From Escherichia virus ESCO5 (Duplodnaviria > Heunggongvirae > Uroviricota > Caudoviricetes): DNA of 64,000 nt. The DNA lies in IMG/VR virus record IMGVR_UViG_2974610597_000001, one strand, 5' to 3'. This document shows, piece after piece, positions 1 to 22,764 of this stretch. The position numbers were made by a program, and so were the translations under genes. Numbering within the stretch: position 1 is the stretch's first letter; each line of letters begins with the position of its first letter. A model generated the notes under the pieces. The model worked only from the letters and a program-made list of their open reading frames with translations. It searched no databases and was not told the DNA's origin.

Positions 1-1451
1 CTAGGGGTACTTCAACTTCTGCTGCTGGTTCTACATTAGCAATGAGTGCTGACCTTGGAGAAAACTGGAATTACTTAAGATTTCCTAACAACGTTCATCA
101 TACAAACCTACCATTTGCAAAAGTTGGTAACTACCTTTATATCTTTGGTACAGAACGTTCATTTGGAGAATGGGAAGGAGAAGAACTAGATAATAGATAT
201 AAAGGTACGTATCCTCGAACGTTTATGTGCAAGATTAATGTATCTGCATGGCCTGCATCTTTATCCGATGTTCAATGGTTTAATATCACCGATCAGATGT
301 ATCAAGGGCATATTGTTAATTCTGCATGTGGTGTTGGTTCGGTATGTGTTAAAGATGGTTGGTTATATTATATCTTTGGAGGCGAAGATTTCTTATCTCC
401 TTGGTCTATTGGGGATAATAGTAAAAAATTATGGTACAAGCACGATGGTCATCCAGCCGATTTATATAGCTATAGACTAAAGATTACCGAACATGATTTT
501 GTATCACGTGATTTCAAATATGGAGCTACGCCAAACCGTACATTGCCTGTATCTATGGGTACAGATGGGGTAAGGCATGTCTCAGCCCCTGTAACTTTTG
601 ATAATGATGTGCAAGTACACTCTTTAACAGTTACTGGTCTTGAGCATGATGGGACACAACAATCTGCCGTTAGAATAAAATTAGATGGTGATTATGGGGT
701 TGTTGCAAAAAATGTCCCAATAAAAAATCCTTCTGAACAGCGACTAATCTTATGTGGAGGAGAAACTCCTTACGTTACTGATGGATCGCTATTACAACTA
801 TATGGTTCAAACCATACGTATCCAAACAGAGCAGTTTTATATGCCCCAGGAGGAGCATATACCCAAAATAATTTCATGCCATATTTAGATGGACAAGTTG
901 CATTAGGTGGTGCATCTAACAGATGGTCAGAAGTGTACGCATCTACAGGAACCATTAATACTTCAGATGGAACATTAAAAACTAAACCTACAGAGATTGA
1001 AGATATTTTACTGAAAGCGTGGGAAGATATTCATGTAATCTCTTATCAATGGCTGAGTGCTATCGCGGAGAAAGGAGATTCTGCGCGTATTCATTTTGGT
1101 GTTATAGCTCAAGATGTAAGAGATATTCTGATTAATTATGGTTTAATGGATGAAAATAGCACTGATTGTAAGTATGCTTTTCTGTGTTATGATGAATACC
1201 CTGCTATGTACGATAGTGTTGTTACGGGACAAAAAGAAATCCCTTTATTTGATGATGAAGGGAATGTTGTAATTGATGAAGAAGGTAATCCAGTAACAAT
1301 CGTAGAAGATGTTGTAGAAACTATCGAAATAATTCCAGCAGGATCGCGATGGGGTATCCGCGCTGACCAAATGTTTTTTATTGAGATGGCTTATCAACGT
1401 AAAAAGTTAAAAGCTCTTGAAGAAAGACTTGCAACCCTGGAAAGTAAATAA
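1..1451 (+). CDS. Tail fiber/tailspike protein, C-terminal part with intramolecular-chaperone (peptidase S74-like) self-cleaving domain; 5' end outside window
   Basis: Frame of ORF 42..1451 stays open back to base 3, so gene is 5'-truncated. C-terminus (HFGVIAQDVRDILINYG ... coiled-coil KKLKALEERLATLESK) resembles the autoproteolytic C-terminal chaperone of phage L-shaped tail fibers/endosialidases. Confidence 0.55.
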   Translation, partial: RGTSTSAAGSTLAMSADLGENWNYLRFPNNVHHTNLPFAKVGNYLYIFGTERSFGEWEGEELDNRYKGTYPRTFMCKINVSAWPASLSDVQWFNITDQMYQGHIVNSACGVGSVCVKDGWLYYIFGGEDFLSPWSIGDNSKKLWYKHDGHPADLYSYRLKITEHDFVSRDFKYGATPNRTLPVSMGTDGVRHVSAPVTFDNDVQVHSLTVTGLEHDGTQQSAVRIKLDGDYGVVAKNVPIKNPSEQRLILCGGETPYVTDGSLLQLYGSNHTYPNRAVLYAPGGAYTQNNFMPYLDGQVALGGASNRWSEVYASTGTINTSDGTLKTKPTEIEDILLKAWEDIHVISYQWLSAIAEKGDSARIHFGVIAQDVRDILINYGLMDENSTDCKYAFLCYDEYPAMYDSVVTGQKEIPLFDDEGNVVIDEEGNPVTIVEDVVETIEIIPAGSRWGIRADQMFFIEMAYQRKKLKALEERLATLESK

Positions 1452-1499
1452 TACCGCTTAGGCGGTATTTCAATCTTTATATCTCACTTAGAGGTACTC

Positions 1500-1763
1500 A
1501 TGGTTAAAGAGAAAAACGGTTTTAAAAAATTTATTCGCGGAATGTTCTGCACTTACCCCGGCAACGGGGTAAGCTCTACGAAAGTCTGGAACGCTGTAGG
1601 CATGTCGGTTATGACAGGCATGTTTATCTTTTTAGGAATAGAAAAAGAAATTCCTGAATGGATGGGTTGGGCTTTTGTTTTCATGATAACCCCTTCTCGC
1701 CTCATGAAAAATCTTATTGATTTACGTTGGGGCAGATCACAATCTACCAAAGAGGATGACTAA
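1500..1763 (+). CDS. Small hypothetical protein, likely membrane-associated
   Basis: 87-aa ORF with hydrophobic stretch, between structural genes; stop overlaps next start. Confidence 0.3.
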   Translation: MVKEKNGFKKFIRGMFCTYPGNGVSSTKVWNAVGMSVMTGMFIFLGIEKEIPEWMGWAFVFMITPSRLMKNLIDLRWGRSQSTKEDD

Positions 1764-3250
1764 TGGACGAATATGGTTTGACAGATGCGGGATTTGTAAT
1801 CCCGACTTTTGACGATGTTTTAAACAACTACATGACAGCAGTAAAAAACACATTTGGTGCAGATGCAGCCACTTCGGAAGATACTGTGATCGGACAACTG
1901 TTTAGAATAATTGCATACACAGATTACACATTGTGGGAAGGTATGCAAGGGGTTTATAATACTCAAACACTGGATGGTGCAGAAGGTATTTATCTTGACG
2001 AAATCTTTTCTAAACGTGGTTTCTATCGAGCAGGGGCAGCAGCAAGTACAGGTTATGCATATGTTAAAAGTAATAACAAAGCAGCTTGGACTTACGAGTT
2101 AGGCACAGATATTTACTTCAACTCTGATAGCGATATGAACTACTATGTTAGCACACCAACTATGTTGAATGCTAAGATTGCAGCTTATCAAATTTCTCGT
2201 GCTAATGCCACTGCTACAGGTGTTCCAAATATTACTTTTTATGCACAAAGTGCGATAGATGGAGGACTAAACAGTAAAACACTTGCACCTGGTTCTTCTA
2301 CATTTATAGCCGATCTTGAAACTTTTATCAAGGCAAACTTAACAGAGGCTGATCGTAGTCTTGTATTTTCTGATTCTGGTAACTTGTCAATTGGTTTTAC
2401 TTCTTTAACCAGTGATACTCCAGTGGGACTAGTAACTCCTATCAAATTTTATGCTAGTGTTCCAGTTGGAACCAAATGGAGTGAAATTCCGGTAGTTGCA
2501 GCAGAGAAAGGATACAATCCGGTGGGTGTGGAGTCTATTACAGGGATATCTTCTACCTTTACAGGTTATCTTGATAGTGGTAACTTCTATTCGTTTTCTC
2601 CTGGTCGAGATGTTGAGACAGATGCAGAATTCCGCTCTCGTTTCAATGACAACGTTGACGAAGCTAACGCAGGGACACGAGCAGCTATTGTGAAAGCTCT
2701 GTTACTTACAGATGGTGTTACTAAGGTGAAGATTTATGATAACCCTACGTTACATGATCAAGAACATGCTCCAGCTATGACTTTCCAGACTATAGTCTAT
2801 GGAGGGAGTGCTGAAGAAGTTGCTGAAGTTATTTACAAAACTAAACCAATCAACAGTTTGACACATGGAACAACTAACATAACTGTTACAACGGAAGACG
2901 GAGGACAAGAAATTATTCGTTTTTCTCCTGGTGCTTCTGCTACGTATTCCGTAAAACTTGTTTATCAAACTGTCAACGGAACAACTTTAAGTGGAACAGA
3001 AAAACAAAACATTGTAGAAGCTTTACAAAACCTGCAAGCTTACTTTGAATTAGGTTCTTCAGTAACGAACGATCAAATCAAAGGTGTTATTTATGCAGCA
3101 CTTGCTTTTGGACGCTTGACTTCTCTTCGTGTTTATGTTAAACTTAATACTGAGGATGACAGTAAATATACAGAGAATAATATAGTTCCTGCTTATAATG
3201 TTGTCCCTTCTTTTGACCTTGATAACATTTCTTACGAGTATGGAGTGTAA
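1763..3250 (+). CDS. Virion structural protein (tail/baseplate component)
   Basis: 495-aa ORF, Ser/Thr/Asn-rich, in tightly packed plus-strand structural operon; no enzymatic motif. Confidence 0.4.
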   Translation: MDEYGLTDAGFVIPTFDDVLNNYMTAVKNTFGADAATSEDTVIGQLFRIIAYTDYTLWEGMQGVYNTQTLDGAEGIYLDEIFSKRGFYRAGAAASTGYAYVKSNNKAAWTYELGTDIYFNSDSDMNYYVSTPTMLNAKIAAYQISRANATATGVPNITFYAQSAIDGGLNSKTLAPGSSTFIADLETFIKANLTEADRSLVFSDSGNLSIGFTSLTSDTPVGLVTPIKFYASVPVGTKWSEIPVVAAEKGYNPVGVESITGISSTFTGYLDSGNFYSFSPGRDVETDAEFRSRFNDNVDEANAGTRAAIVKALLLTDGVTKVKIYDNPTLHDQEHAPAMTFQTIVYGGSAEEVAEVIYKTKPINSLTHGTTNITVTTEDGGQEIIRFSPGASATYSVKLVYQTVNGTTLSGTEKQNIVEALQNLQAYFELGSSVTNDQIKGVIYAALAFGRLTSLRVYVKLNTEDDSKYTENNIVPAYNVVPSFDLDNISYEYGV

Positions 3251-3252
3251 AA

Positions 3253-3882
3253 ATGGCAGTGAGTGTTGACCATGTAACAACTTGGGCCAGTATCAATGAA
3301 GATGTTAAAAACCTTCTGATTGAAGATTTTAAATCTTCTCCTAACATTGTCAAGCTCCTCTACATCGTATCCAGTGAAAAGCAAAAGATAGATCAGGCAA
3401 TGATCTATCTTGCTAAACACCGCTTGATCTCCACAGCCACAGGCAAATACCTAGATATCTTAGGAGAAGAAATGGGGATCGAACGTAATGGCTCTGATGA
3501 TGAAGAGTATAGAACAATATTAAAAATCAGGGCTTACCGCGTAGCCTCATCGGGGACTCGTGGTGACATAATTGATATCTTCGCCCGTTTCACAGGAACA
3601 GAGCGTGAAACGCTTAATACTTACGTAGGTTTGAATAAAACCTTTGATGTGTTTTTCTACAACCTGTGTCTTCAATCTGATCAAGCTTTAGAGCAGTTGC
3701 TAAGTGTTTTCCCTATTATTAGTAGCTACCGTCTTGGAGCAAAAGCAGGATCAGCTTTTGGTTTTAGTTCTTATTATGCTGCCAAACCGCCTCATGGTAT
3801 TGGTGGTTTAGGTTCCCTGTACATGGAATCTACTGGGGATGAAACAGGACGCATGTGTACGCTTCTCAAGCAAATAGATTAA
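3253..3882 (+). CDS. Hypothetical structural protein
   Basis: 209-aa ORF 2 bp after previous stop, same operon. Confidence 0.35.
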   Translation: MAVSVDHVTTWASINEDVKNLLIEDFKSSPNIVKLLYIVSSEKQKIDQAMIYLAKHRLISTATGKYLDILGEEMGIERNGSDDEEYRTILKIRAYRVASSGTRGDIIDIFARFTGTERETLNTYVGLNKTFDVFFYNLCLQSDQALEQLLSVFPIISSYRLGAKAGSAFGFSSYYAAKPPHGIGGLGSLYMESTGDETGRMCTLLKQID

Positions 3883-3891
3883 GGAGTTTAA

Positions 3892-4953
3892 ATGGCGAAG
3901 CCAATATATTATCCTGACTGGGCTACACAAACTGTAACGCTCCCAGGAACTTTAAACACAAACAAAATTAGACCTAAAGAAACCATCCGCACAATTGGTA
4001 TGGATTATGGTCAAATCATGACTTGCGAAGAAATGAACTGGATTCTTAATAATATCGGTTTATGGATTCGCTATTTGGTGGATGACTTTCTTCCAACTTT
4101 ACCTGATACTTACTTGCCTTTAATTGGAACTAAGATTACAATGGCAGGTGATGCTACTGGTGAGGCTACTTGGAATGGTAATAAAGAAGTTACTTTATCT
4201 ATCCAAGTTCAAGATAATAGTCATAATCACTTGTCGGCAAACATTACAGATGCCACTAGTTCAACAGTAACACCAAACGTGTTGGTAAAACGTGATGCAG
4301 GTGGTGCTATTTACGGTGGTGATATTTATGTTAATGGCACTTCCACAACAGATCCTGCAACACTGTTCTTCAAAAACTTTGCAGGACAAACGAATGGTGA
4401 GATTTCTGCCGAGTATCAAAGCGGAGGTCAGCTTTACATCTATCGTAGAAATCCTAGCACAGGTAGTGTATCGGCAGGTGTTCGTTTATATGATGCAGGT
4501 TATGTTCTAATAGATAATCCAAGATCAAACAGTGGACAAGACACTTCTAACGGAAATGCTTTAGTTCGTTTAGATTATCTGAACTCTCGTTTGACTTCCC
4601 TTCAGAATACATTGCAGACGAATATTAACACTGTTCAAAACAACTTGAATAATGTTAACAACAACCTCTCTTCTCGTATAAACAATGTAGAAAGTAATCA
4701 TCAAAGTCAGATTACAAATAACTACAACTATGCTAACGGAACCTTTGTAAGAGATATTCGTTATACTAGCCAAGGTGTGTATTATCCACCAGGGAACGAG
4801 GTTTCTTGGACTTATATCTGTTCTTCTGGTTATGTTCTTTCTGGTATTATCGTACAGGAAACAGGACGTAGCTCTGCGGATAACATCGGTGGGGTTTACT
4901 TCAAACGCCTCCAGCGCAACGTTAACGGAAACTGGTACGATATTGGAGGCTAA
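3892..4953 (+). CDS. Tail fiber protein (short fiber)
   Basis: 353 aa; Asn/Gln-rich heptad region (LQNTLQTNINTVQNNLNNVNNNLSSRINNVESN) typical of fiber shafts. Confidence 0.45.
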   Translation: MAKPIYYPDWATQTVTLPGTLNTNKIRPKETIRTIGMDYGQIMTCEEMNWILNNIGLWIRYLVDDFLPTLPDTYLPLIGTKITMAGDATGEATWNGNKEVTLSIQVQDNSHNHLSANITDATSSTVTPNVLVKRDAGGAIYGGDIYVNGTSTTDPATLFFKNFAGQTNGEISAEYQSGGQLYIYRRNPSTGSVSAGVRLYDAGYVLIDNPRSNSGQDTSNGNALVRLDYLNSRLTSLQNTLQTNINTVQNNLNNVNNNLSSRINNVESNHQSQITNNYNYANGTFVRDIRYTSQGVYYPPGNEVSWTYICSSGYVLSGIIVQETGRSSADNIGGVYFKRLQRNVNGNWYDIGG

Positions 4954-5499
4954 ATGATATTTACAAACTTTAAAAAATATATTCCTGAAGACCCTGAACT
5001 AAAAGAATTGGTAGAAGCAGAGAACATTCTTTTTCTTCGTTGCGATCAAGGTTACGATTGGTATGATTTACGTAGCACAGAATTCAATAACGATAAAATG
5101 AAAGTCGTTTTTGATGATCAAAATCGTATTGTGTTTTGGAATACTGATCCTACACTACTTTGCCCTGAAGATCTTTCTATAGCACAAGTAGACTTTAACA
5201 TAGATACTTTTGAGGATATTAGGAACAAGGTTCTGGATTTAGAAACCTTAACTCTTAAGAATAAAGAGTATTCCCGTGAAGAGTTGATGACACAAGCTAG
5301 TGCAAAAATTCGCTCTTTACAAGAAACAGCGGTAGCACTTATAACACCTTTACAGTATGCTAAAGATTTAGAAATGGCTACTGAAGACGAATTAGCTTAT
5401 CTTAAAAATCTTCAAGTTTATGTAGTTAAACTAAATCGTGTTCCGCTTCAAAAAGACTATCCTTACGCTATAGATTGGCCTACATTACCGACAGAATAA
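4954..5499 (+). CDS. Tail fiber assembly/chaperone-like protein
   Basis: 181-aa acidic protein immediately downstream of fiber gene (ATGA start/stop overlap); assignment by position only. Confidence 0.3.
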   Translation: MIFTNFKKYIPEDPELKELVEAENILFLRCDQGYDWYDLRSTEFNNDKMKVVFDDQNRIVFWNTDPTLLCPEDLSIAQVDFNIDTFEDIRNKVLDLETLTLKNKEYSREELMTQASAKIRSLQETAVALITPLQYAKDLEMATEDELAYLKNLQVYVVKLNRVPLQKDYPYAIDWPTLPTE

Positions 5500-5508
5500 G
5501 GGATCACT

Positions 5509-5844
5509 ATGGAATTTCAAGAAGCATGGGGACTTGCAAAGGATGCAATAATCCCTTTAATCGGAGTCATCTGGTTCTTTTTCAAACAAAAAATGGATAA
5601 ATTCGGCTCTGATCTTGAGGAAATGGAGGAGAAAAGTCGAGAGCTAGAGAAGAAGTTGGTCTTTGTTGAATCAACTTATGCAACTAAAGCCGAACTTACC
5701 CAGATGCTAAATCAAATTAACTCTACATTAATGGCAAATAATAACACTCTTGAGCAAAAAATTGAAAAGATTATGGACCTCAAGAATGCGACTATCCAAA
5801 TGATGCTAGATGACATAGTTAAACGTACACAGAATAAGGGGTAA
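5509..5844 (+). CDS. Small membrane-anchored coiled-coil protein
   Basis: 111 aa; N-terminal hydrophobic segment (IIPLIGVIWFFF) then coiled-coil. Confidence 0.3.
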   Translation: MEFQEAWGLAKDAIIPLIGVIWFFFKQKMDKFGSDLEEMEEKSRELEKKLVFVESTYATKAELTQMLNQINSTLMANNNTLEQKIEKIMDLKNATIQMMLDDIVKRTQNKG

Positions 5845-5847
5845 TTA

Positions 5848-8800
5848 ATGGCAACATTCCCAACATATCCAGCAACGTCTCTCGAACAGGGCGTAGACCT
5901 GGTTATTTTCTCATCTAACCAACTCCATGATGTTATTAATGGAAGTGCTACAGAGAGTATTGAAACAGAATCAGGGTTGATACCAACCCTGAGAAAATCC
6001 CTTGTTGACAACTTTTTCTTTAAAAGCCCATTGGATTGGGCGCAAGGCACAAACGAAACAGTTTTTAACCAACTACGTTATTTTCAGAATGGGGTATTGA
6101 GCGGTTATTATTATGCTCCTAATGCTACATTGGTAAACCCAATTCCTATGCAAGGGACTCCAGTAGGAGATAACAACTGGGTATTGTGGGGACTGAAGAC
6201 AGAACAACTAGCAACAGAAGTCACCCCTTGGGTATATTCTGGTGCAACTGGTTATGAAACAGTAATCAGTCCTCCCTACATCTTTGATAGTGCTATTGTT
6301 ACAATCAATGGTGTTATTCAGGTTCTGGGAGAAGCTTTCCGCATAGAAGATAGTAAAATCATTTTATCTGAACCTTTGGGACATGATCCTGCAACAGGAC
6401 TGCCAAACAAGCTTTTTGCCTATATTGGTAAAATCGTAGCTTCCGCAGATACAGATCCTAACTTAGAAAACCGTCTTGTCAGTTTAGAAACAAAAACTGA
6501 AGAACTGACAGAAAACATGGATAAAGTACCTTTACAAACTATTGCTCGTAAATACGGTTTGTTGGATGACGAAGTAGCTTACGCAACAGCGGGTCAATCA
6601 TTAACAGGGATTAAAGCTCTGTATGATCCGGTAGCACAATCTTCCTACACATTGCCTCCTAACATCACAGGGACTTTAACATCTTTGTCTGTTTCTGGAG
6701 TAATGACTTATTCTGGCGGATCTGTAGATCTTTCTGCATTAGCTGTTGAACGTGGACAGTTTGTTCATTTGCCTACAAGCTTTGGTAATAATGTAACTCT
6801 GACAGCTAAAAATCAGACGATTGGGCGTGGCGCTGGTCGCTATCGTTGGGCGGGAAGTTTACCAAAAAGTATTTTAGCTTCTGATACATTGGAAACAAGT
6901 GGTGGATTAGGTCCAAATGCATGGGTTCTAACTAATACAGAAGGACTGTTAACCCCTCGTGGTGGAACATACAACGATTTATTCGATGTTGTCCGCTTAT
7001 CAGAATTTGCTAACAATACAACTACCTATACCACACCAGAAGCAGCTTTCCAGGCGGCACTGTTAGCAGCAAAAGCTTCGAAAAGTAAGATTCTCGACGC
7101 TTACGGTTGTGATATGACTTTCACGACAAGCTCTTTTGATATTCAAGATATCACTTTGCGTGGGGGTGTGTTCCGTGGTCAACGCGATTATCGTGTGCAA
7201 AATGCTACAGTAGAAGGCACAACTTTCCGTAACTCTCGTGTTATGTATTGGGGTGGTGCTGTGCGCATGTTCGATTGTTTGTGGGACGGTGCTCCTCGCG
7301 CAGGTCAAGTTGGTAGCTTGGTATTCCAAGGAAACCCAATATCAGGTACTTTTGAAATTGATAATTGTACTTTTAAAAACGGGTTATATGGCATCCTTCA
7401 ACAAGGAACAGGGGAACCAGTAACACGCGGTGTCTTCCGTAACCTTACCTTCATGGACATGCAAGGTGATGCAATAGAACTGAACGTCATCAATAAACAT
7501 TATGATGATGGTTGTGTGATTGAGAATATTTACCTGTCTAATATTGATGGGACTAACGCTCCTATTCCTCTGTCCAACTGGGGTATCGGTATTGGTGTGG
7601 CTGGTAAAGGACCATATGGTTACGGAATTCCTGATGATCAATATTGCAAGAATATTACAATTCGTAACGTTTTTGCAAAACGTTGTCGTCAGATTGTCCA
7701 CGTAGAAGTTGGTCGTAATATTTCTATCGAAAACATTCATGGCGATCCAGATCAAACTGTATCTGTTGGGACAGGTTTGGCAACTGGCGCAGTTGTAATG
7801 TATGGAAGTAAAGATTTTACGATTGATGGTGTTTACGGAGAGCCTAAAACAGACGGTAGCACACTTGCAAGTAATATCCGTATGATTTATTTGGAGTGGG
7901 GAACTAACGCAGTTCTGGATGAAGAGGGCAATCCGGTAGTTCCGGCACAGGGCAGACCTTCAAACCCATGCTTTAACTATTCTGTTCGTAACATTCACAC
8001 CAAAACTGGGCGTGTTTTTGCAGGAGTTTCCGCTGGGCCAGGTTATGAAAACAGAGTCAGCTTTGAGAATATCCATTGTGCTGCGTTGCAGTTGTTCGGT
8101 GTAGCTTCTTGGCTTTCAATGTCTAACATCACCTGTAATATCTTTGATTGTGTTGGTCAACCTGAATCTGGTCCAGGGACATTTTATGATGGATTCTTCC
8201 GTAGAGAAAAATCTGTTCTTGAGATGGTTAACGTAAACTGTTACCCAGATGGCAAGACTATGGTTACTGGTCGCCCACAGTGGAGCCGTTGCCGTTACTC
8301 TGATATTCATCGTGTCAACTGTAATGTTGAAGCTAATATGTATACCAATATCGCAGGTGGTATTGGAGCTATTGTAGGGACAACTGGCAAAGTTTATTAC
8401 TTAGAGCCTAACCCTAGCCGAAACATTGATGGGATGCATTTCCCAACAGGGAAGGAGTTTGACAAAGGGGATATGATAGTCAAAGCGGATAATACGTTCT
8501 TCCTTGTAACAACAAGTGGGGCATACATTCCAGATATCCCAGCTTTCGGTATTCGAGCTACACAAGCAGGAGATACCTTCCTGACACAGAACTTGACTCC
8601 TAATGGGACAGCAACAAACGCTTCTTGGTTGTATCACTATCCTCTGTCAGCAGGAACACGTATCCGTATTCCTGGTGCTGGTGTAGGTGGAGCAGATTTG
8701 GACACAGTTATTACTCGTGCACCTTATCAAGATAATGATACGTGGACTAACCCAGTTAAAATAGACATTGCAGATCCAATTGTAACGCCTACGAGTGCTG

Positions 8801-8901
8801 GAGTTAGAATCAAAACCATACCTAACGATTCTAGTAATGTTTCTGTAGGTAATACTGCGGTTATTCGCCCAACACCAGTGGTAGATGTGCCAACAACCTA
8901 A
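5848..8901 (+). CDS. Tailspike-like protein with predicted parallel beta-helix (possible depolymerase)
   Basis: 1017 aa; recurring short N-I-x-x-x-N/V-x-I rungs (IENIYLSNIDGT, ITIRNVFAKRC, ISIENIHGD, SVRNIHTKTG, SFENIHCAA, MSNITCNIFDC) typical of pectate-lyase-fold tailspikes. Confidence 0.5.
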   Translation: MATFPTYPATSLEQGVDLVIFSSNQLHDVINGSATESIETESGLIPTLRKSLVDNFFFKSPLDWAQGTNETVFNQLRYFQNGVLSGYYYAPNATLVNPIPMQGTPVGDNNWVLWGLKTEQLATEVTPWVYSGATGYETVISPPYIFDSAIVTINGVIQVLGEAFRIEDSKIILSEPLGHDPATGLPNKLFAYIGKIVASADTDPNLENRLVSLETKTEELTENMDKVPLQTIARKYGLLDDEVAYATAGQSLTGIKALYDPVAQSSYTLPPNITGTLTSLSVSGVMTYSGGSVDLSALAVERGQFVHLPTSFGNNVTLTAKNQTIGRGAGRYRWAGSLPKSILASDTLETSGGLGPNAWVLTNTEGLLTPRGGTYNDLFDVVRLSEFANNTTTYTTPEAAFQAALLAAKASKSKILDAYGCDMTFTTSSFDIQDITLRGGVFRGQRDYRVQNATVEGTTFRNSRVMYWGGAVRMFDCLWDGAPRAGQVGSLVFQGNPISGTFEIDNCTFKNGLYGILQQGTGEPVTRGVFRNLTFMDMQGDAIELNVINKHYDDGCVIENIYLSNIDGTNAPIPLSNWGIGIGVAGKGPYGYGIPDDQYCKNITIRNVFAKRCRQIVHVEVGRNISIENIHGDPDQTVSVGTGLATGAVVMYGSKDFTIDGVYGEPKTDGSTLASNIRMIYLEWGTNAVLDEEGNPVVPAQGRPSNPCFNYSVRNIHTKTGRVFAGVSAGPGYENRVSFENIHCAALQLFGVASWLSMSNITCNIFDCVGQPESGPGTFYDGFFRREKSVLEMVNVNCYPDGKTMVTGRPQWSRCRYSDIHRVNCNVEANMYTNIAGGIGAIVGTTGKVYYLEPNPSRNIDGMHFPTGKEFDKGDMIVKADNTFFLVTTSGAYIPDIPAFGIRATQAGDTFLTQNLTPNGTATNASWLYHYPLSAGTRIRIPGAGVGGADLDTVITRAPYQDNDTWTNPVKIDIADPIVTPTSAGVRIKTIPNDSSNVSVGNTAVIRPTPVVDVPTT

Positions 8902-8965
8902 TGGAAATAGAGAGGGGGATTCCCCCTCTTCTTCCAATAGAATGGTCTAATAATAGGAGAGATAA

Positions 8966-10990
8966 ATGAATTTAACAAGACCTAATAGTGCGATAGCCGA
9001 TCTAGTAGAAGCTACTTATCGAAAACGTCGCAGTTTTGAGGCAGGTTTTACATTACGTAATTCCCGTGAAGTTTTGCTGTTAGCGGCAGAAGGGAATTAT
9101 TACCAATGGAAAGGAACTTTTCCTAAAGTAGTTCCAGCAAACTCTACGCCAGCCACCACAGGTGGTATTTCTTCCCTTGCATGGCAAAGTGTTGGGACCG
9201 CTGATGATATAGCAATTATCAATGCCAAGTTTACGGCAATGCAGCAACAGATTGATGATCTGTCGGAAACAATACCTGAAGCTGGTAAATCGGCTTATCA
9301 GATCGCACTTGATAATGGTTTTGTTGGAACAGAAGCACAATGGCTTGCTTCTTTGAAAGGGGATACTGGTGCTCAACTTAATATTAAAGGATCATTAGCA
9401 AGCACTAGTGAACTACCATCTACAGGTAACGTAGCAGGTGATGGTTATATTGTAGGAGATGTAATCTACGCTTGGGATGGGGCTGTTTGGAAACTTATCT
9501 CTTCTCTTGGGCCAGAAGGGAAATCAGCTTACGAGGTATGGTTAGCAGATGGTAATACAGGATCTGTTTATGACTTTCTTGCCTCTATAAAAGGTGATAA
9601 AGGAGACGTTGGTCCTACAGGTCCACAGGGTGCACCTGGTGTCAACGCTAATGGTTTTGATTACCGTGGAGATTTGCCTTCTACAAGTAACTTACCACAA
9701 CCTAACTCTGAAAACGTAAGCCAAGCTTATTCTATTAATGGTAATCTTTATGTCTCTAATGGGACAGCTTGGGTCAACATGGGTAATATTGTTGGTCCTC
9801 AAGGTCCACAAGGTGAGGCAGGTAAAGACGGTCTAGATGGAACAGATGGAGACGAAGGGAAATCTGCATATCAAAGTTGGCTGGATGCTGGTAATGAAGG
9901 GACAGAAGTAGATTTTATTGCCTCACTTAAAGGTCCAAAAGGAGACAAGGGTGATCAAGGAGAGCGAGGTCCACAAGGTGAACTAGGTCCACAAGGACCA
10001 GTGGGTGCAACAGGATCAGGTTTAGAGATTATCGGGGTTCTGAACAGCGAAGCTGAACTTCCTCCTACTGGAGAAGTAGGTGATGCATATAAAATTAATA
10101 ATGATTTGTATGTTTGGGTTCAAGATGCTACAGAATGGATGAATGTAGGCAGTCTTGGAGGAACATCAATTACAGCTAAAGGTCATGTTCCGAACAGTGA
10201 AGCTCTCCCTGTTTATAATAACTACGGTGATGCCTATTTAACTGAAGACACTAGTAATCTTTACATCTATACCTACGATCAAGACACCAATTCCGCATCT
10301 TTTGTTGACATGGGAAGTATTAAAGGCGACAAAGGTGAAAAAGGGGATAAAGGAGATAAGGGTGATCCTGGAACAAACGGAACCAACGGTACTGATGGGA
10401 CCAACGGTAAGGACGGCGCACAGTGGTTTGTAGCAACAACTAATCCAGTCACAGGAGACGGTGTTATCAATGATTACGCCTTCAATACTACCACTGGAGC
10501 AGTATTTAAGAAAACAGATTCTTCTACGTGGACACTTATAGGAACTCTTCCTAGTATACCAGAAGCCCCTCAAGACGGCTTGACGTATGGTCGTTCTGAT
10601 GGAAACTGGATCGAAATATCAGGATCAGATCCTACGGAAGCTATAACACCAACTAGAGTTACAGCAGGTTTCATGGAACTTGAAACAACTACTGCCAACT
10701 CTGGAGCATCTTGGACTCCTTCTGGAACTTCCAATATGTATGTTGTTACAGTAACTGACGCTCTGACAGTTGGAGCATGGCCTGGTGTCACTGGCTCTAC
10801 AAAACCTAAAGCGTTTTCAGCAATGATTTATTTGATTCAAGATACAACGGGACACACGGTTACACTAGATGCGTCTTATGGAGCACTAAATGATACAGAA
10901 ATAGCAACTACTGCTAACGCAGTAACAATTTTGCAATTAACGTATCCTGGTGTGGGTGATATCGTGGACATGGTTGTTGTAACACGATAA
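8966..10990 (+). CDS. Collagen-like repeat tail fiber protein
   Basis: 674 aa; Gly-X-Y runs (GPQGPQGEAGKDGLDGTDGDEG; KGDKGEKGDKGDKGDPGTNGTNGTDGTNGKDG) and three copies of a module GKSAYxxWLxxGxxG(T/S)xxDFxASxKG. Confidence 0.6.
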   Translation: MNLTRPNSAIADLVEATYRKRRSFEAGFTLRNSREVLLLAAEGNYYQWKGTFPKVVPANSTPATTGGISSLAWQSVGTADDIAIINAKFTAMQQQIDDLSETIPEAGKSAYQIALDNGFVGTEAQWLASLKGDTGAQLNIKGSLASTSELPSTGNVAGDGYIVGDVIYAWDGAVWKLISSLGPEGKSAYEVWLADGNTGSVYDFLASIKGDKGDVGPTGPQGAPGVNANGFDYRGDLPSTSNLPQPNSENVSQAYSINGNLYVSNGTAWVNMGNIVGPQGPQGEAGKDGLDGTDGDEGKSAYQSWLDAGNEGTEVDFIASLKGPKGDKGDQGERGPQGELGPQGPVGATGSGLEIIGVLNSEAELPPTGEVGDAYKINNDLYVWVQDATEWMNVGSLGGTSITAKGHVPNSEALPVYNNYGDAYLTEDTSNLYIYTYDQDTNSASFVDMGSIKGDKGEKGDKGDKGDPGTNGTNGTDGTNGKDGAQWFVATTNPVTGDGVINDYAFNTTTGAVFKKTDSSTWTLIGTLPSIPEAPQDGLTYGRSDGNWIEISGSDPTEAITPTRVTAGFMELETTTANSGASWTPSGTSNMYVVTVTDALTVGAWPGVTGSTKPKAFSAMIYLIQDTTGHTVTLDASYGALNDTEIATTANAVTILQLTYPGVGDIVDMVVVTR

Positions 10991-10992
10991 CA

Positions 10993-11019
10993 GAAGCCCC
11001 GAAAGGGGCTTTCTTTTTA
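10993..11019 (+). terminator. Rho-independent terminator
   Basis: GC stem GAAGCCCC-GAAA-GGGGCTTC followed by TTTTTAT, right after stop of collagen-like fiber gene. Confidence 0.6.
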
Positions 11020-11031
11020 TGGAGGGTTTAA

Positions 11032-13704
11032 ATGTTTCCAATTCCAATATTTACTATTATGACCAGCACTGGTGTCGTTCCTCTGCCAGCAGGTATTGTT
11101 AAAAAAGTAATCACTCTAGATTACCCAGATAATGCTGGCAATTCTAATAGCAGTTTAGCAATTTTGCTTAATGATGGTAGATTGTTTACTCAAGGCGCAA
11201 ACCTTTTTGGTGAGATTGCAGATGGAACTCGTAGTGCACGATTCAATAATTTCCACTTAGCTTCTACTGTAGTAGCGGATGTGTTTACCGCAGATCGTTG
11301 TTTTGTTATTAAAACTAACAGTGGGGGATGGCAATATTCAGGATTGACAGCAGGGTTGGTAGGATCTATAGCAGCAGGTGGTACGGATGCATGTGTAACT
11401 ACTTGGACCAGCTTTCCATCTGTAATAACAGGGACTATCTCTTTAGCCAATCTTAAAGAGGTTAAGGGAGGATATAACAACACTCTCTGGTTGATGAATA
11501 GTGGTGTTCTTTATGGATCAGGTCAAAACACAGTAGGCAGTTTAGGTGCAAGTACTACTAACGAAGTTTCTACTCCTCGTCAGATAACAAGTGCAGCAGT
11601 TGCTTTTGATGCAGGTTACAACCAATGCTCTTATGTCAACAATGTGGGAACCTTGCGTGTTTGTGGGGCTAGTAAAGGTTTAGCAGGTAATAATAACACA
11701 ACAACAGCTTTTGTCAATGCCAAGATATCCGCTACTGAAACAGTGTATGTCAAAGATTACATCAATACAGTTTCCCAGACAATAGTTGTAGGAGATACCT
11801 CCGGTGGCACGGGTACAGTAAACTACTTATATGTTAGATCTAATACAGAAACAACCTACACTAAACTGGACACCTTTGCAGCAGGTTTCTCAACATGGAA
11901 ATTTCCACCAAGCCGCCACTCTTTTTTCGTTGGGATCAATAATTCCTTGTGGGCTATTGGTAAGAACTACACTGCAAACTTAGGTTTGGGGTATGATTCT
12001 GCGAGCGGAGATCCACTCCAAGTGGGAAAACCAGTTAAACCTGAAGGAGTGGGTTCCTGGGATATAAACAAGCTCACAAGCGTTCATACACTGAATATGG
12101 ATGTTACTAACCAATTAGGTTATCAAGGAACCTTTTTCGTTTATAATGGAGATATGTATTATTCAGGTATTTGGAAAGATGGGAAAGCCTCGTATCTGTT
12201 CAATAGTGGTCTAAACTATAATAAATTCACACCAATAGCAAGCTCCGTGATTACAGGGGATGTTCTGGCAACTGGCTTAACTACAGATTCTTTAGGAATT
12301 TGTATTGTAGGTGGAACTAAACAGTTGACACATTCTGTTAGCCCAGAAGGAGGTAAACTTTTCAATATTAAATACACTTCTTCTGCCCCTGCAAACATGA
12401 CAATATCATCTACTGGTTTAATGACTTTCCATGCAGAAGGTGGTTTTGATGCAGGTATGACAGCCTTAAACGCTGAAGGAACAATTTTATCAGATACCTC
12501 TGGAGGATATGCTTCAACATTGAGTGTTTACACCCCTAGCTTATCTGCGATGGATGTAGGAACAACACAAACAATGGTAGCAGAAATAACACCAACAGGA
12601 GCAGCAAGCTTACCTGATATGGTTGTTGAGTATACAACTACAGATCCTAATGTTGCTACAGTAGATCCTACAACTGGTGTAATAACTGGTGTTGGTGATG
12701 GTGGTTGTAGGATTGGTTGCACAGCTACGTATCAAGGTGTTGTTACCGCTTCTGATAGTTCTTATTTAACGGTGAATGCTGTTGCGGGAAAGGAGTTAGC
12801 TCCATCTCCGAGTAGTAGTTTAACGGTTCTAAACGGATATTTCAACCACTCGGCAGATGGGGCAATTACGTTCCCAACTTTATCGGGTACTGTTACACCA
12901 GCTAACTTTGTAGTTAAGGTGGATGACGTTGTAGTTCCTTCAAGTAAAGTAATATTTAGAAACAAAGCTTTCTCTACAGTGGATAGTTATCCAGCAGGAG
13001 AATATAGACTGGCTATTGAATTTGCAAGTGCTTCAGTAGTTAATAGTGTGGAAGTGTCTATGGAAGCAAACCCAAGTCTTTTAGAACTTTGGGGCGGTAA
13101 TAGAATCAGTTATTCTACAAGCCCAGCCTCACAATTCTTAAAAGGTTGTGCTAACTTAAGACGAATAACTTCTGATTGTTTTAGTAACACATCTTACACC
13201 GGAACATCTATAAGCGGTATCTTCTCTGGCTGCACAAGTTTGACAGCTATCCCTGAAGGATTATTCAGTGATGCTTTATTTCCTTCAATGACAACAATGT
13301 CAAGCACGTTTGAAGGTTGTACATCTTTAACATCTATTCCTTCAGATTTATTTAAGAATCTGTCAAAAGTTACAAGATATTCTTACACCTTTAAAGATTG
13401 CACCTCTCTTGCAGAAGTTCCAGCAGGAATGTTTGATAATATTCCAACGAAAGTGACCTCTTTAACAGCTACATTCCAAGGTTGTTTAGGACTTACAGAT
13501 TTTAATAAGATCTTTAATGACAACCCAGGGTTAACTGTTTGTGGTAAACGTGGAGCATTATCTTCTTTCTTTAGTGGATGCACAAATCTTACAGGAACAG
13601 GAACAACATTAACAAATACATTAGGCGGAGTAGCTAATAGTTACCTATTCAGGTATTGCACAAAACTTTCTGATTATAACAACATTCCTTCCGGTTATAA
13701 ATAA
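11032..13704 (+). CDS. Tail fiber/receptor-binding protein with Big_2-like Ig domain and C-terminal BspA-type leucine-rich repeats
   Basis: 890 aa; VATVDPTTGVITGVGDGGCRIGCTATYQG (Big_2-like); C-terminus has 5+ repeats of F-x-GC-T-S/N-L-T-x-I/V-P (FSGCTSLTAIPEGLF, FEGCTSLTSIPSDLF, FKDCTSLAEVPAGMF, FQGCLGLTDF, FSGCTNLTGT). Confidence 0.55.
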   Translation: MFPIPIFTIMTSTGVVPLPAGIVKKVITLDYPDNAGNSNSSLAILLNDGRLFTQGANLFGEIADGTRSARFNNFHLASTVVADVFTADRCFVIKTNSGGWQYSGLTAGLVGSIAAGGTDACVTTWTSFPSVITGTISLANLKEVKGGYNNTLWLMNSGVLYGSGQNTVGSLGASTTNEVSTPRQITSAAVAFDAGYNQCSYVNNVGTLRVCGASKGLAGNNNTTTAFVNAKISATETVYVKDYINTVSQTIVVGDTSGGTGTVNYLYVRSNTETTYTKLDTFAAGFSTWKFPPSRHSFFVGINNSLWAIGKNYTANLGLGYDSASGDPLQVGKPVKPEGVGSWDINKLTSVHTLNMDVTNQLGYQGTFFVYNGDMYYSGIWKDGKASYLFNSGLNYNKFTPIASSVITGDVLATGLTTDSLGICIVGGTKQLTHSVSPEGGKLFNIKYTSSAPANMTISSTGLMTFHAEGGFDAGMTALNAEGTILSDTSGGYASTLSVYTPSLSAMDVGTTQTMVAEITPTGAASLPDMVVEYTTTDPNVATVDPTTGVITGVGDGGCRIGCTATYQGVVTASDSSYLTVNAVAGKELAPSPSSSLTVLNGYFNHSADGAITFPTLSGTVTPANFVVKVDDVVVPSSKVIFRNKAFSTVDSYPAGEYRLAIEFASASVVNSVEVSMEANPSLLELWGGNRISYSTSPASQFLKGCANLRRITSDCFSNTSYTGTSISGIFSGCTSLTAIPEGLFSDALFPSMTTMSSTFEGCTSLTSIPSDLFKNLSKVTRYSYTFKDCTSLAEVPAGMFDNIPTKVTSLTATFQGCLGLTDFNKIFNDNPGLTVCGKRGALSSFFSGCTNLTGTGTTLTNTLGGVANSYLFRYCTKLSDYNNIPSGYK

Positions 13705-13706
13705 GA

Positions 13707-13734
13707 AAAGGAGCCATTTGGCTCCTTTCTTTTA
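13707..13734. terminator. Bidirectional Rho-independent terminator between convergent structural (+) and replication (-) blocks
   Basis: Hairpin AAAGGAGCC-ATTT-GGCTCCTTT flanked by A-run upstream and T-run downstream. Confidence 0.55.
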
Positions 13735-20988: not shown

Positions 20989-22764
20989 ATAATTGCTATC
21001 CGTAGGCAAATTAGCAGGATTGTTGAAATACTGCTCTTTGTCATGCAGAGTTGCAGTTCTAATGTCATAGTAAAACTGCCCTGCCGGACCAGTTTCCGAG
21101 AACTCACGGTTTTTTAGGATAAAGCAATGAGTCGTATTGCGTTCTACAGGGTCTTCAGCGGCTTTATCTCGTTCCAAAGCCAAGGTAATACCAGCACCTT
21201 TAGCCAAGAAACTACTACCCATTGCATCGTCCTCTGTTAAGTGTTCATTGCCACCATTAGCCGATTTCTTAACGTGTGAGATGACGATAATAGTTATAGC
21301 ATACTCTTTCATGATGCGCTTCAACCATGTTGCTAACTCTTCCTGGGCTTGAACATCCATACCAGAAAGCAAATCAGAATAAGGGTCGATAACAAGAATT
21401 GTTACTCCAAAATAGATGATCATCTCCAAAACTTTTTCTTTGATAGACTCCACATCTGCTCCACGATCATCACACACATAAAAACGTGGTGATCCATCTT
21501 CTCTTTCGTAAAAATCCAGGATTTTTTCTTTATTCTCTTCCAAGATTTGAAATTTCTCTTCCGGTGTTTTCCTGTGTAGAGGAATATGCAGGAACGAGGA
21601 CAACAGGTTACGAGAATATTTCTTATAAGTTGCTTCCAAGGACAGAATACCTAGGGTATGTTCTGGGTGCGCAACAATAATATGTTTGGTGATCTCGTTC
21701 ACCATCAAAGTTTTACCGATACTGGTCTTTGCCAGGATGACTGTAATCTCTTCCTCTACTAAACCACCACCCAGCATATTTGCAGCAACACGCATAAAAG
21801 GAGGCAAGGTAATCATCTTGGATTCCAAGCATTCTAATGCAGCTTCATACAAGACATTAGAAGCATAAACACCTGCTGGGGTGTATAGACGAGCACTCCA
21901 AAAAGCTTTTACGAAATCTTTTGCACGACCTTCTTCCAGATACTGATTGGCATCCTTAAGATCCATCTGCATACGATAGACTTTGTTACGAGGCAGCACC
22001 TTAACAATATTTTCAAATGCCTCATTACCTGCTTTGTCGTTATCCATGCAAACAATAATCTTCTTAAATTTTTCAAAGAAAGGATATTGTGCCTGAACTT
22101 GTTTATACATACTGGTTTCACCAGTTGTGCCACTTACTACGGCTGGAAGCTCATATTTACTGTCCAAGTTTTCAGATAGCATTTGATAAGCTGCCAGAGC
22201 ATCGTGTTCACCACCTGTAATTACAACAGTATGAGAACGGTCTGCAAAACGAATTTGTCCAAAAAGATCTACATCTTTACCTACTTGACCAATAGGTTTA
22301 CTGAAATCTTTAGGATGAATACGACGCTTAAAACCAACCAATTCTTTACCGATGGTAGTCGGATATAAACAACTTTCTACTACCATCTGATCTCCTTCCT
22401 GACGGTATTCATAACGAACACCATAGAAAGATGAAACTTTTTCTTTAATGCCTCGATAACCACGTGGGTTGGTTGATGTTTCTTGAACAATTTTACGATG
22501 AATCTGTTTATTAAATTCCGAACCCACAATCTCCTCCTCTTCTTCTAAAACTTCACCATTTTCTCGTAACCATTCTACGCTAGGAATAGTGTATTCACAC
22601 GCAAAGCACTTAGCACCTTTATGCTCTCCATTAGAATCTAATCCGTAAACCATCAGGTTATTACGAGAGCGATCCTTGCCATTTTTCATGCAGCGCGGAC
22701 AACCTGTATGTCCTTCCTTGCTAAGATCAACATCAAATCCATATTTAGTTATAATGTGCGACAC
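20986..22764 (-). CDS. Bifunctional DNA primase-helicase (T7 gp4-like)
   Basis: 592 aa; N-terminal zinc ribbon CPRC...CFAC, TOPRIM-like middle, C-terminal DnaB-type helicase with Walker A (AKTSIGKT) and Walker B-like (VLVIDPYSD). Confidence 0.8.
   Translation of the reverse strand: MSHIITKYGFDVDLSKEGHTGCPRCMKNGKDRSRNNLMVYGLDSNGEHKGAKCFACEYTIPSVEWLRENGEVLEEEEEIVGSEFNKQIHRKIVQETSTNPRGYRGIKEKVSSFYGVRYEYRQEGDQMVVESCLYPTTIGKELVGFKRRIHPKDFSKPIGQVGKDVDLFGQIRFADRSHTVVITGGEHDALAAYQMLSENLDSKYELPAVVSGTTGETSMYKQVQAQYPFFEKFKKIIVCMDNDKAGNEAFENIVKVLPRNKVYRMQMDLKDANQYLEEGRAKDFVKAFWSARLYTPAGVYASNVLYEAALECLESKMITLPPFMRVAANMLGGGLVEEEITVILAKTSIGKTLMVNEITKHIIVAHPEHTLGILSLEATYKKYSRNLLSSFLHIPLHRKTPEEKFQILEENKEKILDFYEREDGSPRFYVCDDRGADVESIKEKVLEMIIYFGVTILVIDPYSDLLSGMDVQAQEELATWLKRIMKEYAITIIVISHVKKSANGGNEHLTEDDAMGSSFLAKGAGITLALERDKAAEDPVERNTTHCFILKNREFSETGPAGQFYYDIRTATLHDKEQYFNNPANLPTDSNY

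Follow-up and report, generated by a model that had tools for sequence, protein, structure and literature searches.

The first 13704 nt of a window of 64,000 nt from Escherichia phage ESCO5 (the window is the whole stretch of DNA that was analysed, and positions are counted from its first letter) hold the distal half of the module in which this phage encodes its baseplate and tail fibres. Window 1-13704 is an unbroken series of open reading frames (ORFs) on the + strand. A megablast search identified it as Escherichia phage ESCO5 (KX664695.3 / NC_047776.2; Phapecoctavirus, Stephanstirmvirinae) with 100% identity over all 13704 nt, and matched it to phAPEC8 and dozens of other Phapecoctavirus genomes with 97-98% identity. 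As the ORFs span 350-1000 aa and the E-values go down to 0, matching by chance is of no concern. A sequence-only reading had proposed that at least five candidate adhesins follow each other in this segment; every ORF it listed exists on the + strand where it was placed, and each has strong homologues. The ESCO5 record itself annotates an endo-N-acetylneuraminidase, a gpH-domain fibre, a tail fibre assembly protein, a colanic acid-degrading protein and a tail spike. We propose, with a probability of about 85%, that the locus is the orthologue of the multivalent adsorption apparatus of phage phi92, in which several host-recognition proteins are co-produced and mounted on the baseplate wedge. The genes that make up this apparatus are the following.

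1..1451, + strand: endo-N-acetylneuraminidase (endosialidase) tailspike gene, 3' part; last 482 of 921 aa, coding 3-1451
1763..3250, + strand: 495-aa baseplate wedge subunit of the Baseplate_J family, phi92 gp145 homologue; Pfam Baseplate_J 1.4e-8, phrog_6, 80% identity
3253..3882, + strand: 209-aa second baseplate wedge protein (DUF2612), phi92 gp146 homologue; phrog_4056 4.3e-81, 86% identity
3892..4953, + strand: 353-aa short tail fibre, phi92 gp147 (fibre III) homologue; phrog_4465 1e-107
4954..5499, + strand: 181-aa tail fibre assembly chaperone; Pfam Caudo_TAP 5.3e-13, 49.7 bits (cutoff 22.1)
5848..8901, + strand: 1017-aa tailspike related to phi92 gp150; phrog_6117 'colanic acid degradation' 9e-283
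8966..10990, + strand: 674-aa collagen-like tail fibre, phi92 gp151 homologue; phrog_15437 E=0, 60% identity to gp151
11032..13704, + strand: 890-aa modular adhesin-like protein ('TfpM1' in PMC12695924); defined by domain searches and an AlphaFold2 model

Gene-by-gene BLASTP revealed that the ESCO5 block is collinear with phi92 gp141-gp152, the genes in window 1-13704 corresponding to gp143-gp152, and that most of these genes share 60-97% identity. The two phages have the same gene order with the wedge genes interleaved, and the similarity extends over the wedge proteins (80-86% identity), the endosialidase (96.7%), the N-terminus of fibre III (75%), the tailspike anchor (74%) and the collagen-like fibre. 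They differ in three places: the short-fibre tip and its chaperone are replaced in ESCO5; the ESCO5 tailspike has an additional D1/D2-like insert and a catalytic domain that is only 33% identical; and the 890-aa protein occupies the place where phi92 encodes the 202-aa immunoglobulin-like (Ig) protein gp152 and an unrelated 295-aa gp153. Compared to phAPEC8, the DNA is 97-98% identical over window nt 3-12782, endosialidase included, whereas the 890/891-aa protein of phAPEC8 ends in a different C-terminal module that lacks leucine-rich repeats (LRRs). Five host-recognition proteins are indeed present, but they do not form an uninterrupted series, being interleaved with wedge genes, a chaperone and two small proteins. 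Between the first and the second lie a small membrane protein (1500-1763) and the wedge genes (1763-3250 and 3253-3882); the second and the third are separated by the chaperone (4954-5499) and by a membrane/coiled-coil protein of 111 aa (5509-5844).

Phage phi92 is the model for the term 'multivalent adsorption apparatus' (Schwarzer et al. 2012, as cited in PMC5374246). Its structure from cryo-electron microscopy (cryo-EM) has trimeric fibres on the wedge in three sets of six, with fibre II joined to the base of fibre I; the wedge protein gp145 serves as the platform for fibres I and III, and the assignments are gp143 for the tip of fibre I and gp147 for fibre III (PMC13450770). The BASEL study described the same locus in Phapecoctavirus as a 'Swiss army knife' and left unclear which gene makes which fibre (PMC8594841). 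The suggestion that the ESCO5 genes specify a branched, multi-specific adsorption apparatus and/or a capsule depolymerase thus agrees with the published orthologous locus and with the close match to the phi92 endosialidase EndoN92. Also in line with it, ESCO5 was obtained on an avian-pathogenic E. coli of type O2:K1, has a broad host range (lysis of 32 out of 46 strains) and infects K1-negative strains as well (PMC5374246). The notion that such an arrangement is unusual was not borne out, as it is a known hallmark of Stephanstirmvirinae and Vequintavirinae.

The endosialidase gene is cut by the window edge, with its start codon 1314 nt upstream. The part inside the window consists of the rest of the beta-propeller (nt 3-485), a stalk (492-962) and an S74 intramolecular chaperone (963-1448). 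Pfam assigned End_beta_propel PF12217 (2.8e-87, 293.5 bits, cutoff 24), End_tail_spike PF12219 (4.5e-63, 212.5 bits, cutoff 25) and Peptidase_S74 PF13884 (8e-13, 48.9 bits, cutoff 22). The protein matches the structure of the phi92 endosialidase (PDB 4hiz) with 1574 bits and K1F endoNF at 1e-237. Alignment to the mature peptide annotated in phi92 predicts self-cleavage between T759 and S760 (nt 960/963), in a motif (GTINT/SDGTLK) that is the same as the annotated phi92 site. The Ser760-Lys765 pair is present within SDGTLK, and we take this pair to be catalytic at the autocleavage site, as in K1F endoNF. With an above-threshold S74 domain and a phi92-type cleavage site, the fibre with a self-cleaving chaperone domain that had been read from the sequence is upheld. 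BLASTP gave 96.7% identity to EndoN92 (phi92 gp143), and both the gene and this value had already been noted by the ESCO5 authors (PMC5374246). Depolymerase activity is a well-founded prediction given this identity to a biochemically characterised enzyme, and the protein would hydrolyse alpha-2,8 / alpha-2,9 polysialic acid, the published activity of EndoN92.

The ESCO5 enzyme shares the beta-propeller catalytic domain, the stalk and the self-cleaving C-terminal chaperone with the endosialidases of K1F, K1E and K1-5 (GH58; PDB 1v0e, 3gvl, 3gw6), to which phi92 gp143 is 51-54% identical. These enzymes belong to a podovirus tail, whereas that of ESCO5 is a fibre on a myovirus baseplate. Around the gene, the DNA identity between ESCO5 and phi92 rises from ~70-80% to 96-98% between window -1867 and +1432, a span that covers the last third of the gp142 homologue and the whole endosialidase gene. 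The gp142 homologue has 717 aa and comprises Calx-beta and TIM-barrel 'non-contractile tail sheath' domains. Many Phapecoctavirus genomes, such as those of Mt1B1_P17 and ESCO13, have no endosialidase gene; in the phages without it, the homologue of gp142 keeps 99% identity as far as aa 683 but lacks the last 34 aa. Since exactly these 34 aa are absent from phages that lack the endosialidase, this tail peptide may dock the enzyme. By its pattern of identity and occurrence, the endosialidase gene is a present-or-absent cassette that was recently shared with phi92.

The short tail fibre has a conserved N-terminal part (aa 1-267), a coiled coil rich in N and Q at aa 220-279 (nt 4549-4728) and, at aa ~286-353 (nt 4747-4950), a receptor-binding tip that is divergent. 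Its 75% identity to phi92 gp147 is confined to aa 1-267, and the tip matches the short tail fibre of phiTE (9cuy_c, 6e-23). The description of an N/Q-rich short fibre with its own chaperone holds, the richness being mainly local, with N and Q making up 40% of aa 220-279 and 16% of the whole chain. The genes of the fibre and the Caudo_TAP chaperone abut at 4953/4954, which is the arrangement of fibre and chaperone of the Mu gpS/gpU type; BASEL also relates this locus to Mu GpS/GpU (PMC8594841). The chaperone is 24% identical to phi92 gp148, compared to 75-86% for the neighbouring genes. Because the tip differs from gp147 and the chaperone has diverged to this extent, the two were exchanged together.

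The 1017-aa tailspike starts with an anchor (aa 1-215, nt 5848-6492) that is 74% identical to phi92 gp150, followed by D1/D2-like N-domains (aa 227-~400, nt 6526-7047), of which aa 227-367 match the CBA120/G7C N-domain at 1e-29. The catalytic domain (aa 426-1000, nt 7123-8847) matches phi92 gp150 (PDB 6e0v) at 2.1e-78 and also resembles WcaM. A homologue of identical length on a Logan contig carries precomputed Pfam matches to Phage_phiTE_241_N, Tail_spike_N and WcaM. The tailspike of roughly 1000 aa that had been proposed is therefore present, as a homologue of the phi92 colanidase gp150; homology to gp150 points to a beta-helix fold, and depolymerase activity is plausible on the same sequence grounds. 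Its target could nevertheless be a glycan other than colanic acid, such as enterobacterial common antigen (ECA), O-antigen or another capsule, which the protein would cut or bind while its name was inherited from gp150. The modest identity of the catalytic domain would fit such a change of substrate, as would the NCBIfam WcaM score (1e-25, 90 bits), which is far under the cutoff of 808, and the BASEL finding that these phages rely on ECA (wecB) as a common primary receptor (PMC8594841). On the other hand, the best structural match in the sequence search is the phi92 colanidase itself (6e0v, over ~575 aa), the PHROG family is that of colanic acid degradation, and the tailspike is >99% conserved across Phapecoctavirus (PMC11126041), which fits a conserved target such as colanic acid. 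We consider a target other than colanic acid rather doubtful, and colanic acid the most likely substrate.

The D1/D2-like region of the tailspike (aa 227-367) and the N-terminus of the collagen-like fibre share Tail_spike_N / D1-D2 domains with the branched tailspikes of Ackermannviridae (CBA120) and G7C. A search of the ESCO5 fibres and tailspikes for branching XD domains of the CBA120 type matched only D1/D2-like domains, and any branching in the ESCO5 apparatus would follow from the density maps of phi92. The collagen-like fibre carries a Tail_spike_N anchor (aa 12-77, nt 8999-9196; Pfam 9e-20, 71 bits, cutoff 25), a repeat region at aa ~107-486 (nt 9284-10423) and, distally, a tip at aa 558-674 (nt 10637-10987) that matches the phiTE tail fibre 9cuy_g at 5e-8. 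The Pfam Collagen family was assigned at 3.6e-12 (46.3 bits, cutoff 27.2). BLASTP self-comparison of the protein detected no internal repeats, but a motif search and MAFFT alignment of segments did reveal three 'GKSAY...' motifs and four globular modules of ~45 aa; the region also has four G-X-Y runs of 6-11 triplets. Thus, the collagen-like character of the sequence-only reading stands, whereas the number of modules has to be raised from three to four.

The least characterised protein of the block is the 890-aa one. The sequence-only reading had named structure prediction as a check of its adhesins; run on this protein over its full length, an AlphaFold2 model (74 sequences, mean pLDDT, the predicted local distance difference test score, of 88.4) revealed an architecture of propeller, Ig, Ig, sandwich and LRR. 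An RCC1-like propeller of seven blades (aa ~8-400, nt 11053-12231) opens the chain. Next come two Big_2 domains that are Ig-like (aa 411-584, nt 12262-12783), then a beta-sandwich (aa ~598-686, nt 12823-13089), and the chain ends in an LRR solenoid of the BspA/DUF285 type (aa ~700-890, nt 13129-13701). Pfam supports the propeller with RCC1 at 24.2 bits (cutoff 21.7), with RCC1-like PF25390 at 42 bits lying under its cutoff of 150, and also found a Big_2 domain. Direct scoring of the LRR region was sub-threshold for LRR_5 PF13306 (17.1 bits, cutoff 27.7), DUF285 PF03382 (14.7, cutoff 25) and the NCBIfam PARCEL repeat (21.9 bits, cutoff 30). The predicted fold of this region is nonetheless an LRR solenoid. 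A search of 5.8 billion proteins returned 203 homologues, many of them with PF13306/PF03382 and one named a BspA family protein, and the alignment consensus has the repeat FxxCxSLTSIPxxLF with a period of ~26-28 aa. The BspA-type LRRs that had been proposed are hence supported by the annotations of homologues and by the predicted fold, but the name of fibre is not supported, as no shaft or trimerisation element can be recognised in the model.

These repeats resemble the LRR / DUF285 (PARCEL) modules of BspA-type bacterial surface proteins in the repeat length, in the PF13306/PF03382 homologues and in the solenoid fold. The bacterial proteins are secreted or wall-anchored, whereas the ESCO5 module of ~6-7 repeats, sub-threshold in Pfam, sits on a phage propeller-Ig scaffold. 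Since relatives at 46-57% identity keep the propeller, Ig and DUF285 layout, the 890-aa protein seems to follow a stable design. TfpM1 is absent from Justusliebigvirus (PMC12695924, 2025), and no mention of RCC1 or leucine was found in that paper. The genome of the Klebsiella phage ST16-OXA48phi5.4 (a P2-like prophage of Peduoviridae) has seven places with weak similarity (~33% identity) to the LRR module; the best match lies in a 1008-aa 'tail protein I' (4523-7549 of the stretch examined), a gpI-type baseplate protein extended to ~1000 aa. By this match, LRR-type modules on baseplate proteins are not limited to the phi92 group.

Comparison of the 890-aa protein with that of phAPEC8 placed a sharp boundary: identity is 98% over aa 1-584, and from aa 585 onwards no similarity was found. 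The last 306 aa (nt 12784-13701) thus make up an exchangeable cassette that is cleanly swapped between relatives. The LRR-type C-module occurs in 36 phage records, and the phAPEC8-type (non-LRR) module in several dozen Phapecoctavirus-type records at >=90% identity and in some Justusliebigvirus records at 91-92%. Phage phiWec190 (LC739539.1) carries the LRR type and phiWec181 (LC739534.1) the phAPEC8 type; in a published study of Wecvirus groups, the group of phiWec190 was YhaH-dependent and that of phiWec181 flagella-dependent. This is only a correlation between cassette type and host-factor dependence, as another fibre gene also differs between the groups. The phi92 protein gp153 was considered as a split-off module of the phAPEC8 type and rejected, as the two have no similarity.

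Several further observations concern the same region. On contig 34 of Logan SRR10359460 (8001-9191 of the stretch examined), one in-frame gene of 396 aa replaces the 674-aa and 890-aa genes. It begins with fibre residues 1-73, which are the Tail_spike_N anchor, and continues with residues ~567-890 of the 890-aa protein (the end of the Ig domain, the sandwich and the LRRs), so that window ~9188 is linked to ~12733; elsewhere this Phapecoctavirus contig is collinear. A collapse in assembly seems less likely than a real deletion variant, since the junction shares only an imperfect microhomology of ~24 nt, which makes an artefact unlikely. In Mt1B1_P17, an extra 'endonuclease' gene that is absent in ESCO5 lies just downstream of the 890-aa gene (21213-21620 of the stretch examined); it may be a homing endonuclease beside the exchangeable module. 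Records labelled as Campylobacter, Pseudomonas and Acinetobacter phages (for example MG065650.1, OR584014.1 and OP562383.1) are near-identical to modules of the locus, carrying an LRR-type or phAPEC8-type C-module at 91-99.7% protein identity. Wrong host labels or contaminating coliphages seem likely here, and the same doubt about the host was voiced for ABPW7 (PMC11126041).

Instead of binding a host receptor, the 890-aa protein could be an accessory decoration of the virion, adhering to mucus or other environmental surfaces in the manner of Ig-domain proteins such as Hoc, or a non-structural protein whose gene lies at the edge of the tail module, which would leave four adhesins rather than five. 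Its model has neither a trimeric shaft nor a known anchor domain; its Big_2 domains and LRRs are generic adhesion modules; and Justusliebigvirus phages do without it, yet have very broad host ranges. A terminator-like hairpin also parts its gene from the fibre operon, and the only proteomic support comes from a distant relative, gp27 of phage rV5, which was seen with three weak peptides at a marginal 3.1% coverage and is not listed among the virion proteins in the main text of the rV5 study. Against this, host-specificity modules typically show just such a clean swap (here 306 aa) behind a nearly invariant part (aa 1-584), the types of cassette follow the two Wecvirus groups with their different host-factor dependence, and the natural in-frame fusion sets the LRR module on the Tail_spike_N anchor of a fibre. 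In addition, virions of the related phage W70 were found to contain RCC1-like proteins, although these derive from different genes, and the distant homologues retain the domain layout. On balance we regard a decorating or non-structural role as unlikely. A bolder proposal, which we put forward only tentatively and hold to be improbable as a whole, is that the protein represents a class of phage adhesins that is new, non-fibrous and probably monomeric: its propeller would serve for docking, with the baseplate or another fibre as partner, its exchangeable LRR tip would recognise a protein or another non-glycan receptor, and the choice of cassette would set the use of a secondary receptor, as is hinted by the flagella-dependent and YhaH-dependent Wecvirus groups.

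The remaining features of the block are two small genes and two hairpins.

1500..1763, + strand: 87-aa small membrane protein, phi92 gp144 homologue; phrog_1322 2.6e-26, 84% identity to gp144
5509..5844, + strand: 111-aa protein annotated 'lipoprotein', phi92 gp149 homologue; phrog_15210 4e-70, 76% identity
10993..11012, + strand: terminator-like G+C-rich hairpin followed by a T-run, from a consensus scan; between the collagen fibre gene and the 890-aa gene
13707..13728, both strands: terminator-like hairpin for both directions, at the end of the tail-fibre block; the convergent replication genes follow

The 111-aa protein has a hydrophobic N-terminus and a coiled coil. Two small proteins with hydrophobic segments thus lie inside the fibre block, and both are kept in phi92 as gp149 and gp144. 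The phAPEC8 record has an annotated putative terminator at the position equivalent to the hairpin at 10993..11012. The sign of the guanine-cytosine (GC) skew flips at ~13.7 kb, where the convergent replication genes start. A promoter scan of the block gave 38 sites against 37 expected, no signal above expectation, and no invertase or shufflon repeats were seen.

These features bear on whether the host-recognition proteins are displayed together. They might instead be alternatives, with a subset present per particle or per infection, for example through regulated expression, so that multivalency would exist at the level of the population. Terminator-like hairpins between some of the genes would suit this, as would the density of phi92 fibre II, which is still without an assigned protein. 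The block nevertheless lies on one strand as one late module without switching repeats, and in phi92 a single particle displays three fibre types by cryo-EM; alternative display therefore seems very improbable to us.

Several points weigh against a full multivalent apparatus in ESCO5. That all five proteins are on the virion at once would be a property carried over from phi92 and its relatives, and in phi92 itself the AlphaFold3 models of gp150 and gp151 misfit the density of fibre II, which still has no assignment (PMC13450770). The ESCO5 genome announcement reports that K1 is not the essential receptor (PMC5374246). The tailspike catalytic domain is only 33% identical to that of the proven colanidase, which leaves its substrate uncertain. 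For the 890-aa protein, the model shows no recognisable trimeric shaft, trimerisation or baseplate-anchor domain, the hairpin at 10993-11012 precedes the gene, and the rV5 relative is marginal in virion proteomics. What the analysis of ESCO5 itself established is the sequence identity and synteny, the domain content, the folds as predicted, and the boundaries of the cassettes.

On the model of phi92 and its relatives, from which simultaneous display, attachment sites, substrates and the order of events are taken, the multivalent apparatus of ESCO5 may work as follows. The host-recognition proteins would be mounted on the six baseplate wedges, built from the gp145/gp146 homologues that are encoded in the same block. 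The endosialidase would trimerise through its C-terminal S74 chaperone, which would then cleave itself off at T759/S760, and the mature enzyme would digest the polysialic-acid K1 capsule and give the phage access to the cell surface. The 1017-aa tailspike would strip a second exopolysaccharide, most likely colanic acid, while the collagen-like fibre and the 890-aa propeller-Ig-LRR protein would provide further reversible contacts. Finally, the gp147-type short fibre, folded by its own chaperone, would bind the core of the lipopolysaccharide irreversibly and pass the trigger to the wedge, leading to contraction of the sheath. Host range would evolve by exchange of cassettes, the units being the complete endosialidase gene, the tip of the short fibre plus its chaperone, the tailspike's catalytic part, and the last 306 aa of the 890-aa protein.

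Altogether, the locus is real and was read correctly, but it is already known as the host-recognition locus of a published phage. Its least described element is the architecture of the 890-aa protein with an exchangeable LRR tip, along with the precise boundaries of the cassettes. A propeller protein tipped with LRRs that has neither an assigned receptor nor an assigned place in the virion deserves attention, since fibre II of phi92 lacks an assigned protein. Owing to the broad host range that this locus sets, phages of this group are therapeutic candidates where capsulated and avian-pathogenic E. coli are the target, and the endosialidase cassette, the short-fibre tip with its chaperone and the 306-aa tip offer natural cut-points for the engineering of host range.

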